Positions 27,001-30,000 of a stretch of DNA of 64,000 nucleotides are shown here, piece by piece. Where the stretch lies: the NCBI RefSeq assembly GCF_054482595.1, contig NZ_CM137008.1; one strand, given 5' to 3'. The stretch's first letter is position 1; each line of letters opens with the position of its first letter. The position numbers were made by a program.

Positions 27001-30000
27001 TATAGTGCTTGTTATTTCTTTGGTGACTTCTTCTGCGGCTGTTTTTGATAATGCAGAAACAACGGCCCCTATTGCTACAGAACATATTACAGCTGCACCA
27101 ATCATTACTGTCGCCATGACAATAGAAGCGGCTGCACTTGCGTAAATACTTTTAACCAGTTCAATCGTATCTTGATCGACACCAATAACGTCCAGAAGCG
27201 CGGTGATTGCGAGCAGAGTGGGATCAACTGTTTTAATAGCAGCCGAAAGACCTTCTACAACTTTCCCTAAAATCCAGCCGGTAGCCGTGGTGCCCAGAGC
27301 GATTTGACAAGTGATATCTACACCTAATACTACTGCGCCCGCTATTCCACCAATAAGCGCCAGTGCACCCGCAATACTTGAACCACCACTAGGAACTGCA
27401 GCAAGAAGACCAACAACAATTAAGATTGCGCTCATGGCAATGGTAGCTACAGTTACACACTCATTAACGATTTTTAAAACTTTAGTCGTGGTGGTATATT
27501 TACGTGCTGTTTCATTGAGTTTATTTTCCCTGACATGGTTAATCTCTTTCATTACCTCAGATTGATTTTTAATAGAGTCGCAATTGGTATCACCAATAAC
27601 TTCCATTACTGAGGTAATCAAAAGGATAAATGTGGCTGTCGCATTTCTGTTTTTCTGGTTTTCCTGGGTCAGGCAAATATTAGTGGTAAAGTTATTAATC
27701 TGTTCTTGCTGTTGAATTTCGTCAAATATTTCCATACTTTGGCCGATCGCAGCATCAGCATCCATAATGGCTGTATTTAACGATTTCTCAGCTAACGATT
27801 TTTTTTGTAATGACAGCGTGAGTGTTTTTTCAGCCGCATTTTTTTGCGTTAGTACTTTATTATATTGCGGATCGCCAGGTTGCAGTTGCGACAGCTCTTG
27901 ATTCAATGTATTGACTTTTTTCTCCAGCGATTGCACCTTTTTATCGACCGCATTGTAATTATTGTTGGCCTGATGCATGATATCGTCAGCTTTTTGCGCA
28001 GAATCTAATGACGAGGCGTAGGCGTCGCTTAATTCACGAAACTTATTATGAGCCATTTCGTGTCGAAGCAGGGTGCTGTCAAGGTTATTATGCAATCGTG
28101 TTGTAATATCCTGATCGGCAATGCCTGTTAAATTACCCAAAATCATTGTCAGGCGGGCATCATTCGTCTTTGCTGTAGTGGCGTTGTCTGAATCTGAAAC
28201 CTGTATTGCAGGCGGAGCAAGCATCGGTTTGTTTTCAAGACGAGCGCGAATATCGTTATCAAGGGATTTCGGGTTTTTATTAAGCCGCATGGGATCAACT
28301 TGCGTTTTGCTGCTGTCCTGCAGTCTTTTTTCCGCATCGCTATACTGTGTACGCAATGTTTCGCTGATTTGTTCAAACGTGATCGTTTGTCCCGTGATCG
28401 GTGCCGACATAATTCACCTCCTTTTTAAGCTATCATCGGGTGTAATTAATTCTTTTTTATTTAACTCATGGCAGATGTTTATTCCCATCTAAAATGGCAT
28501 CAACGGGAAAGTAAGTAATGTGTTTATTGTTATTCTTCTCATTTATTTCATCGCCATGGTTATTTTTTGAATCAGCCGTGGCTTCCTCATGATATTTCCT
28601 GGTTAACTCTTCAGGCGTAAAAGAAGATTTTTTTTCGTTTATGTTCATTTTGCCGACTCACTCTGTTTGAACTTCCTCTTCGGTATTGGCTGTCAAAAGT
28701 TCAAGATAAGCAGTAGCCATCTCTTTAATTTTTTCATTTTGACTATAGGTTACGACAGTATTAAATAATTCAGTGGCCATTTTAATGTTTTTTAAGCCCA
28801 TCTGGCATTGGCCCATATAATAAACCAAAGAGAAATCGTTATCGGGAGATAGCATCAAACAGATATGATACATGTCGAATGCCTTTTGATAATCTTTCTT
28901 CAACTGACAAACGGCGGCATATCCTTTTAAATAGTTATAATTTTGGAAATCATAAATACAGAGAAATTTAAAAAAGAGCTCAGCTTCGTCAAGTCTTCCT
29001 TTTTCATAAAAGTTATAAGCGTAAGCATAAACGCCTTCAAGGGTATCCGGAGTAATACCATGCAGCTCTGCAAGTGTTGCTCCCATACCTAGTGCACGTT
29101 CGAACTTACTGGCAATTTCTTTATTTTCTTCTAAATCCAGATTTGCGCTTTCCATCTCTACTCTCTCCTTTCGAACATTCTTTGTTCAGACTTCACCATT
29201 TTTTAGAGGGTGGTGATATCAAAATTCGCTCATTTTTATGCCCATCCGTTGGGCTTCCTTTTCTGCATTAAAAACAAGTATTGTTTCAATGAGATAAGAT
29301 TTTCTATGTGATGAAATGAAAATAATGTAGAGGGAAATTTATCCACAATCCTGATGAACTGGTTCAATTTTGATTGGAATTTGAAAAAGCAGGTGATTTA
29401 CTGATATGCGAGCTTAAGTCAGCGGCTGCTGGCCTGAGCGCGGAGGTGTGCGAAATTCACATATCCGGGCATTCCACCTTACCCAGCGCTTCCCAGTAGT
29501 TATTCTGATTATTACGCTCCATCGCCACAATAGCTTCACGGATATGTTGTTTGTTACTCTCATCAGACAACATTAATTTTTCCCACGCTTCGTCTGATAA
29601 TGACGCCTGTGGCGTGCAAATTTTACGTAAATCTTGCAATACCGTGGTTTTCTCTTTTGCCGACTGTAGCGAACTGAATGGCGACTCGGCCTGAGAAATG
29701 GCTGGAAAAGTCAGGAATACGGTAATCATGAGTAGCATCGTTAGCTTCATAGCGGCAACCTTCTGCAAATGTGCATCGAATGAAGCATAAGTGTAGTTTG
29801 CTTTTGCCGCTCTCATCATGCTGTACGAAAGGTGTTTGCGTGGTCAGTAAGAAGTGCCAGTTTTTTATACCTTTTTCTTCTATTCGATAGCTTTTCGTTT
29901 TTTAAACCGTAGTGATCTTGCCATTATAGTCAGTTAATGATTAAAAAAAGGATAAAAAATGAAACTGACAACACATCATCTACGGGCGGGGGCCGCATTA

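Follow-up and report, generated by a model that had tools for sequence, protein, structure and literature searches.

A candidate InvF-type promoter upstream of the eicA-eipBCD translocon operon of Escherichia coli

What switches on the translocon operon of the eip island? Many extraintestinal and enteroaggregative strains of Escherichia coli, among them those of sequence types (ST) 69 and 38, carry the second type III secretion system of the species (ETT2) and the eip island, and both their regulation and their function are unclear. We addressed this question in a stretch of 64,000 nucleotides of contig NZ_CM137008.1 (assembly GCF_054482595.1; hereafter the window), which carries the operon eicA-orf60-eipB-eipC-eipD, headed by a translocator chaperone gene, on its minus strand. 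The region upstream of eicA (29156-29456, minus strand) is the exact gap of 301 nt between the eicA start codon (ATG, 29155-29153) and the stop codon of the core gene yicS (29457-29459), and all of it is island DNA. Our analysis indicates that this interval probably is the cis-regulatory region of the operon, with a promoter of the type of Salmonella PsicA that would, by analogy, be bound by the activator EivF together with a chaperone.

The interval was compared with its counterparts in two other islands. Escherichia albertii carries an orthologous island at the same site, with an EicA 71% identical to that of E. coli, and a third eip-like island, of another layout and with a chaperone 55% identical, is present in two assemblies labelled E. 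coli (GCA_009799345.1 and GCA_910664965.1). In the alignment of the three, about 85 nt next to yicS (29372-29456, minus strand) could not be aligned, and this segment is a non-conserved spacer. Downstream of it, two elements were invariant in all three islands: Box 1, CATCAGGATT (29347-29356, minus strand), and Box 2, AAAATGAGCGAATTTTGATAT (29216-29236, minus strand), with the core TGAGCGAATTTTGATA at 29232-29217. Box 2 is identical in 24 of 24 nt between E. coli and E. albertii, and 21 nt are identical in the third island; its core lies 75-78 nt before the chaperone ATG in all three (77 nt for eicA), and the two boxes are 121 nt apart in two islands and 104 nt apart in the third. A block AArATGrTGAAsT and a GGAG ribosome-binding site are kept as well. 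Five E. coli alleles differ at 13 sites of the interval, and all of these sites lie outside the two boxes, the -10 block and the ribosome-binding site.

Box 2 belongs to a family of motifs found at the same place in other secretion loci of the type of pathogenicity island 1 (SPI-1) of Salmonella. Copies occur 74-126 nt before chaperone or candidate effector genes of four other such loci; those before translocator-chaperone genes, at 87-126 nt, belong to the Ysa system of Yersinia enterocolitica (sycB), a SPI-1-type cluster from a gut metagenome, and two further clusters. In the metagenomic cluster the box overlaps the sctU stop codon, and one more copy precedes a gene of unassigned function. 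Position upstream of a chaperone gene is a common trait, with the eicA box 77 nt before the ATG and those of six other chaperone loci at 75-126 nt. When a position weight matrix (PWM) was built from 13 non-Salmonella copies, its top match in Salmonella fell exactly on the InvF site of PsicA, TGGGCGTTTTT(T)GAAT; the sicA upstream region reads ATTGGGCGTTTTT(T)GAATGTT there. In Providencia, whose SicA is 80% identical to what we take to be the Salmonella SicA sequence, the same matrix found TGAGCGATTTTTGAATGT with a score of 20.8, reached by 2 of 300 shuffles, and this copy is intermediate between Box 2 and the InvF site. When a degenerate pattern was derived from a set that included the window's own copies, it matched the 64-kb window exactly at three places, upstream of eicA, upstream of eilA and within the setC-selC spacer, compared with 0.01 matches in shuffled windows. 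Across about 118 kb around the ETT2 of E. coli strain XH990, it had a single match, 102 nt before ygeF-ygeG-ygeH.

XH990 differs from the window at 1 of the 40,901 nt compared; a 901-nt query around the interval matched it at 100%. Its genome contains a candidate regulator. The gene eivF is equivalent to invF, mxiE and ysaE (Table 1 of PMC7232297), and EivF of XH990 is an intact protein of 249 amino acids (aa) whose best NCBIfam match is the InvF model (184.8 bits, below the equivalog cutoff of 259). The strain also encodes two chaperones of the SicA/LcrH class, EicA and YgeG, so that a cognate activator and a chaperone are both present. In Yersinia, the sycB promoter PsycB is activated by the AraC-type protein YsaE together with the chaperone SycB (PMC3467454), and Burkholderia PbicA follows the same logic of activator and chaperone (PMC4236580). 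By analogy with YsaE-SycB at PsycB and InvF-SicA at PsicA, Box 2 would be bound by EivF, an InvF-like AraC activator whose gene belongs to the ETT2 island, some 870 kb distant, and which would act with free EicA or YgeG. In the MxiE box of Shigella, G6 and T10 are needed for activity (PMC9769918), and their equivalents are kept in the eicA box as G29227 and T29223. We therefore propose Box 2 as the binding box of an activator of the InvF/MxiE/YsaE type, and binding by EivF appears more likely than direct action of the HilA-like regulator EilA.

The arrangement of the remaining elements is compatible with such a promoter. Box 2 contains a -35-like TTGATA (29222-29217, minus strand), and 16-17 nt downstream lies a conserved, weak candidate -10 hexamer, AATGGT (29200-29195), within the conserved block AAAAAATGGTGAAG (29190-29203, minus strand). 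The pair TTGATA and rATGrT with this spacing is the sole sigma-70-like pair whose aligned position all three orthologues share. The InvF site of PsicA overlaps the -35 element (PMC7595419); from this overlap and the geometry of the hexamers, a start zone at 29180-29190 (minus strand) is predicted. Transcription from there would give a leader of about 25-35 nt with the Shine-Dalgarno sequence AGGAG (29165-29169, minus strand), which lies 9 nt before the eicA ATG and whose GGAG is conserved. A simple sigma-70 scan found no site in the interval and a PWM scan no candidate above the level of shuffles; with no good sigma-70 hexamers, the promoter should be silent without an activator. The operon promoter that the initial annotation had placed in this interval thereby gains indirect support from the invariant elements and the aligned hexamer pair, and initiation itself is predicted from the sequence.

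Several observations weigh against this interpretation. The sigma-70 score of the proposed promoter is 6.9-8.2, and the best scores of shuffled sequences have a median of 8.2. By hand alignment, the eicA box agrees with the InvF consensus ANNGGNCNTTTTTTNAANGTT (quoted in PMC8490769, as is the PsicA site that Darwin and Miller described) in only 8 of 15 positions and with the MxiE box GTATCGTTTTTTTAnAG in 9 of 16, neither of which is significant, and the best interval matches in a consensus scan lie elsewhere than Box 2 and do not rise above shuffles. Among the copies, only the one before eilA reaches marginal significance (11/15 for InvF and 12/16 for MxiE, equalled by 30 and 15 of 500 shuffles, respectively). 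No box was found within 300 nt at two SicA-type loci, one of Citrobacter portucalensis and one labelled Salmonella, and the Salmonella sicA sequence used above comes from an error-prone, frameshift-ridden assembly (a T run of 5 rather than 6). Finally, the ETT2 of XH990 is broken by a resistance region bounded by insertion sequences (IS) in eivI/J and by a frameshift in epaO. Since the apparatus is broken, the circuit may be idle or vestigial in this strain; eivF, ygeG and ygeH are intact. Of the scan hits outside Box 2, the MxiE-like ACAATACTTGTTTTTAATGCA (about 29284-29264) was the best InvF-consensus match of the interval (10/15); it was rejected because 118 of 500 shuffles did as well and E. 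albertii conserves it poorly. As for the interruption itself, it spans about 29 kb at 942,900-972,300 of XH990, is bounded by IS1 and IS26, and carries intI1-dfrA12, mph(A), mer, aac(3)-IId and TEM-1.

The interval had at first been taken to hold sites for a HilA-like regulator, and the most serious alternative to EivF is that Box 2 is the site of EilA or YgeH, with EilA activating PeicA directly and autoregulating eilA, and YgeH autoregulating ygeF-ygeG-ygeH. Three of the four E. coli copies indeed stand before transcription units in which a HilA-like gene or its chaperone gene is included, or which lead into one, all three eip-type islands with the box encode a HilA-like protein, and eicA and eipBCD are reportedly under EilA control. 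At the HilA-box promoters PprgH and PinvF-1, HilA binds two directly repeated hexamers with 5 nt between them, at about -54 to -37. Lostroh and Lee reportedly described HilA boxes as repeats of this kind, and Box 2 is not such a repeat. No conserved HilA-type hexamer repeat was evident by eye in the interval; TTCAT repeats are present at 29320-29304, but the third island does not conserve them. The same box stands before Yersinia sycB, whose promoter depends on YsaE and SycB, and, in other SPI-1-type clusters, before chaperone genes that immediately follow sctU, and its Salmonella counterpart is an InvF site, not a HilA site; HilA there binds PinvF and PprgH, and is absent from most SPI-1-type systems (PMC7232297). 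EilA has been reported to control eicA, eipB, eipC, eipD and eaeX as well as the ETT2 genes eivF and eivA (PMC4210603, PMC7058095, PMC11068852), the dependence of eicA going back to Sheikh 2006 as cited in PMC4210603. EilA dependence can therefore be indirect, and in the EivF model the effect of EilA on eicA would be mainly so, with EilA acting on eivF and EivF on PeicA, possibly also through the distal Box 1. Direct binding of a HilA-like protein to Box 2 thus seems rather unlikely, and the original assignment of the regulator is best revised in favour of the InvF class.

The second copy of the box, AAATGAGCGTTTTTTGATAG (23945-23964, minus strand), is located 91 nt before the eilA ATG and is conserved in E. 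albertii. It stands just past a terminator-like hairpin (24018-24040, minus strand; z-score -2.5) that follows eipD and closes the operon, and this position between the hairpin and eilA suggests that eilA has an InvF-type promoter of its own. A 9-mer common to the upstream regions of eicA and eilA, TTCATCACA, was judged to be due to chance. The ETT2 copy of XH990, TGAGCGATTTTTGATA (positions 14301-14316, minus strand, of the region L018), repeats the eip arrangement of box, chaperone gene and gene for a HilA-like regulator. That this box precedes both eilA and ygeF-ygeG-ygeH suggests feedback of EivF on the two HilA-like regulator genes. One may go further and suppose a cross-island regulon of EivF and its chaperone, in which the ETT2 activator directly drives eicA-eipBCD and, in contrast to the situation in Salmonella, also eilA and ygeF-ygeG-ygeH in a positive feedback coupled to secretion, the lower tier acting on the upper, and in which Box 1 is a separate input peculiar to detached eip-type islands. 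We offer this extension tentatively, as a possibility that we would at present bet against.

The third copy within the window, TGAGCTATTTTTGATA (33204-33219, plus strand), is in the AT-rich setC-selC spacer, where it is followed only by an open reading frame (ORF) of 9 codons, with a rhuM pseudogene on the opposite strand. This spacer was found in 3,676 of 5,426 complete E. coli genomes, K-12 derivatives among them, and probably is what is left of an old selC island. In E. albertii, an intact rhuM lies beside setC, and the eip island occupies the same yicS site without nlpA between yicL and yicS. As regards the third island, an inverse autotransporter gene lies upstream in the same direction, the HilA-like gene follows the tip-protein gene co-directionally, IS remnants are present, and the corresponding region of one of its two assemblies contains a further Box 2 copy (position 2042 of L011).

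Box 1 may be part of a distal activator-dependent promoter or a site of EilA action. Exactly 17 nt after it lies a -10-like hexamer, TACATT (29324-29329, minus strand), which reads TACATT in E. albertii and TATTTT in the third island with the same spacing. Accordingly, the main EilA-responsive promoter could be the distal one, with Box 1 at -35, TACATT at 29329-29324 as its -10 element, a start near 29317 and a leader of about 160 nt, and Box 2 would then have a secondary or modulating role. Invariance of Box 1 and of its distance to the hexamer in three islands speaks for this possibility, as does the confinement of Box 1 to detached eip-type islands, all of which have a HilA-like gene. On the other hand, the -35 position reads AGGATT and has no -35 match, and a scan for Box 1 before other genes controlled by EilA or YgeH (iatC, eilA, eivF, eprH and ygeF) did not find it. 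We regard a dominant distal promoter as improbable. In strain DA33137, an IS1 element is inserted at the equivalent of about 29340, the DNA beyond it is rearranged (ykgR comes next), and Box 1 is lost with Box 2 kept; loss of the Box 1 part is uninformative about the function of a distal promoter.

Both yicS and eicA are on the minus strand, a relation missing from the initial annotation, and the interval therefore also is the region downstream of yicS. In E. coli, no convincing intrinsic terminator was recognised downstream of yicS (RNA fold z-score -0.54), and read-through from yicS may thus occur. This raises the question of whether the interval contains a promoter of consequence at all, or whether the operon is transcribed by read-through from yicS or is silent relic DNA under H-NS; the absence of a strong sigma-70 promoter from the interval, the decay of ETT2 in XH990 and the AT-rich DNA would all agree with this. 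Such an explanation has difficulty with the conservation of both boxes across species amid diverged flanking intergenic DNA. E. albertii keeps both despite a terminator-like hairpin after yicS (z-score -3.2), the third island has both without yicS upstream, and eicA is reportedly regulated by EilA. We therefore consider an interval devoid of a relevant promoter to be decidedly improbable.

It was also considered that Box 2 acts as RNA, through a mini-ORF (ATG AGC GAA TTT TGA, encoding MSEF) or through structure in the leader. Most copies retain the ATG and the TGA in frame with it, and AAAAT/ATTTT forms a small inverted repeat. However, no ribosome-binding site precedes the mini-ORF, one copy begins with CTG and the Salmonella copy with TTG, the fold is no better than that of shuffles (z-score -1.3), and there is no Rfam match. 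Moreover, the homologous PsicA site is DNA bound by InvF at -35 and hence lies upstream of the transcript. A role at the RNA level is very improbable. The Rfam scan of 28400-30000 yielded no family, with a lone chance match to a plastid family at E = 2.1. Just upstream of Box 2, an E. coli-specific hairpin, GCCCAACGGATGGGC (29240-29254), is terminator-like on the plus strand; E. albertii lacks it, and no role suggests itself. A 43-aa ORF (29236-29367, minus strand) was treated as spurious because it is interrupted by stops in E. albertii; on the plus strand, a 65-aa ORF spans 29074-29271. The sequence preceding Box 2 might have been a relic of the 3' end of sctU (spaS/epaS), but a tblastn search with four SctU proteins returned only noise.

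The interval was originally described as an AT-rich stretch of some 300 bp upstream of the chaperone gene and adjoining yicS. The exact coordinates bear this out, and so does a GC content of 38.5%, compared with 50.5% for the window. The coding DNA from eicA to eipD has 38.3%, and ten other intergenic gaps of the window range from 33% to 52%; the interval is AT-rich relative to the genome, yet unexceptional locally. Its composition is uneven: the GC content falls to 28% over the 100 nt at the centre (29256-29355) and reaches 59% over the 56 nt adjoining yicS (29401-29456). An AT content of this kind is a trait of DNA silenced by H-NS, and MxiE-dependent promoters are AT-rich targets of such silencing (PMC9769918). 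The sole match to the H-NS nucleation motif tCGATAAATT (as quoted in PMC9769918) within the interval is TGGATAAATT (29336-29345, minus strand), which agrees in 9 of 10 positions, varies among E. coli alleles at 29341 and 29340, and is absent in E. albertii. H-NS binding has been demonstrated only for ygeH (PMC4210603), and from the composition and the analogy with ygeH, sopB and the MxiE targets, binding to the interval is plausible.

The limits of the island were determined by alignment with the empty nepI-yicS site of K-12-like and O157:H7 genomes. These and other empty-site genomes align with the query only from 29459 onward, and the right-hand junction is therefore the yicS stop codon (29457-29459, minus strand), which is TGA here and TAA in empty-site genomes. 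The junction had been expected inside the interval; it was found at this locus, but at the interval boundary (29459) and not within, so that the entire interval is island DNA. In O157:H7, the nepI-yicS spacer is 46 nt long, and its first 21 nt are retained at the left end of the island (11095-11115, plus strand), placing the left-hand junction after 11115. The remaining 25 nt or so have been replaced and are unrecognisable at the right end, where the yicS-proximal 76 nt showed no similarity to the empty-site spacer (alignment score 13, shuffle mean 12.6). The neighbourhoods of the two junctions have no k-mer of at least 9 nt in common that could represent a direct repeat, and the annotation contains no integrase gene between nepI and yicS. 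The island thus lacks both hallmarks of site-specific integration, flanking repeats and an integrase. Of 5,426 complete E. coli genomes, 739 have the 301-nt interval itself with an identity of 95-100%, usually in one copy each.

The locus is the known eip or selC-B island of enteroaggregative E. coli (EAEC) 042 and of ST69 strains, which sits between yicM (nepI) and nlpA (PMC4210603, PMC7058095, PMC11068852, PMC2808357). The RefSeq annotation of XH990 at the match lists eilA, iatC, translocon genes and a SycD/LcrH chaperone, and the gene order was taken from this annotation and from the ORF list. On the plus strand, nepI (9910-11094) is followed by iatC (air, eaeX; 11296-22122). On the minus strand lie the HilA-like gene eilA (22172-23869), eipD (24072-25421), eipC (25465-26616), eipB (26629-28410), a 60-aa ORF annotated as hypothetical (orf60, 28466-28648) and eicA (28658-29155), with the operon downstream of eicA occupying 24072-28648. 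The core gene yicS (29457-29750, minus strand; RefSeq annotation) lies upstream of eicA in the same direction, and beyond it are nlpA (plus strand), yicL and setC (both minus strand) and the tRNA-Sec gene (33636-33730, minus strand). EicA is a translocator chaperone of the SicA/IpgC class: it scored 113.3 bits against the NCBIfam model LcrH_SycD (cutoff 104.8) and 151 bits against the SicA model, under its cutoff of 184, and matched IpgC structures with E = 1e-39.

A few further observations concern the neighbourhood. The product of orf60, between eicA and eipB, has no NCBIfam match, and small ORFs occupy the same post-chaperone position in E. albertii and in the gut-metagenome SPI-1-type cluster. 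Between the convergent genes iatC and eilA, a strong 10-bp hairpin (22136-22159) is probably a bidirectional terminator. A toxin-antitoxin pair (genes for a RelE/ParE toxin and a helix-turn-helix antitoxin, about 9016-9676) lies between yicN and nepI; it is also found in O157:H7, where the toxin gene is a pseudogene, and is absent from a K-12-like strain. Alleles of yicS are strongly divergent within E. coli, most genomes falling in a band of 80-90% identity, and in the segment that matched, which is mainly yicS, the identity of the window is 98.8% with O157:H7 and 83.8% with K-12-like strains. A search of genome contigs with EicA yielded solely contig JAIJJM010000039.1, which is filed as a metagenome-assembled genome of Collinsella sp. 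Its content is E. coli eip DNA with an EicA 99% identical, and it evidently is mis-binned or a contaminant.

The interval is, then, most likely a virulence promoter of an ordinary kind that depends on an activator and lies in a known island, and what is new is the candidate InvF-type box as a testable detail. The initial annotation is corrected on three details, namely the class of the regulator, the position of the junction and the co-directional gene upstream. The 16-nt box provides a handle on the wiring between two separate islands, with 29227 and 29223 as its critical bases, EivF with EicA or YgeG as candidate activator, and three further genomic copies, and it may serve as a sequence handle in a genome-wide search for ETT2 effector genes.

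Among known systems, the eip/selC-B island of EAEC 042 (Ren 2004; Sheikh 2006; EC042_4007-4012) is the same island, with the same gene order and the same insertion point between nepI (yicM) and yicS/nlpA and without any material difference. In the literature found on it, neither the anatomy of the promoter nor the exact junction is described, nor is a box of the InvF type, and the literature search returned no mention of EC042_4007-4012 or of an EivF binding site. With the MxiE box of Shigella, which serves effector promoters dependent on MxiE and IpgC, the eicA box shares the family of regulator and chaperone, a core of CG, T-run, A and A, and the retained G6 and T10; it differs in its low agreement with the consensus given above, which the eilA copy follows more closely. 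The Shigella ipgC-ipa operon itself is not known to be MxiE-dependent. The box of PsycB, an internal promoter of the Ysa island of Y. enterocolitica, TGAGCGAAACTTGATA, is identical to the eicA box in 14 of 16 positions and lies upstream of the chaperone gene heading sycB-yspBCDA (PMC3467454); unlike the eicA box, it is 126 nt from the ATG (eicA 77 nt), and its operon is contiguous with the apparatus genes. The remaining comparison is with the InvF-SicA-dependent PsicA of Salmonella (Darwin and Miller 2001). Salmonella sicA follows spaS and receives read-through from PinvF, whereas the eicA operon is detached from the apparatus genes and lies in another island than eivF; in addition, A replaces two T in the run of the eicA box, a conserved distal Box 1 is added, and the dependence of eicA on EivF is proposed by analogy. 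In both cases, however, the promoter lies directly upstream of a SicA-class chaperone gene heading a translocator operon and has poor sigma-70 hexamers, and the box, about 75-110 nt before the ATG, combines a core containing G and C, a T-run and TTGAw (TGGGCGTTTTTTGAAT in PsicA, TGAGCGAATTTTGATA in eicA), in a genome that encodes an InvF-like activator, here EivF, and a SicA-like chaperone.

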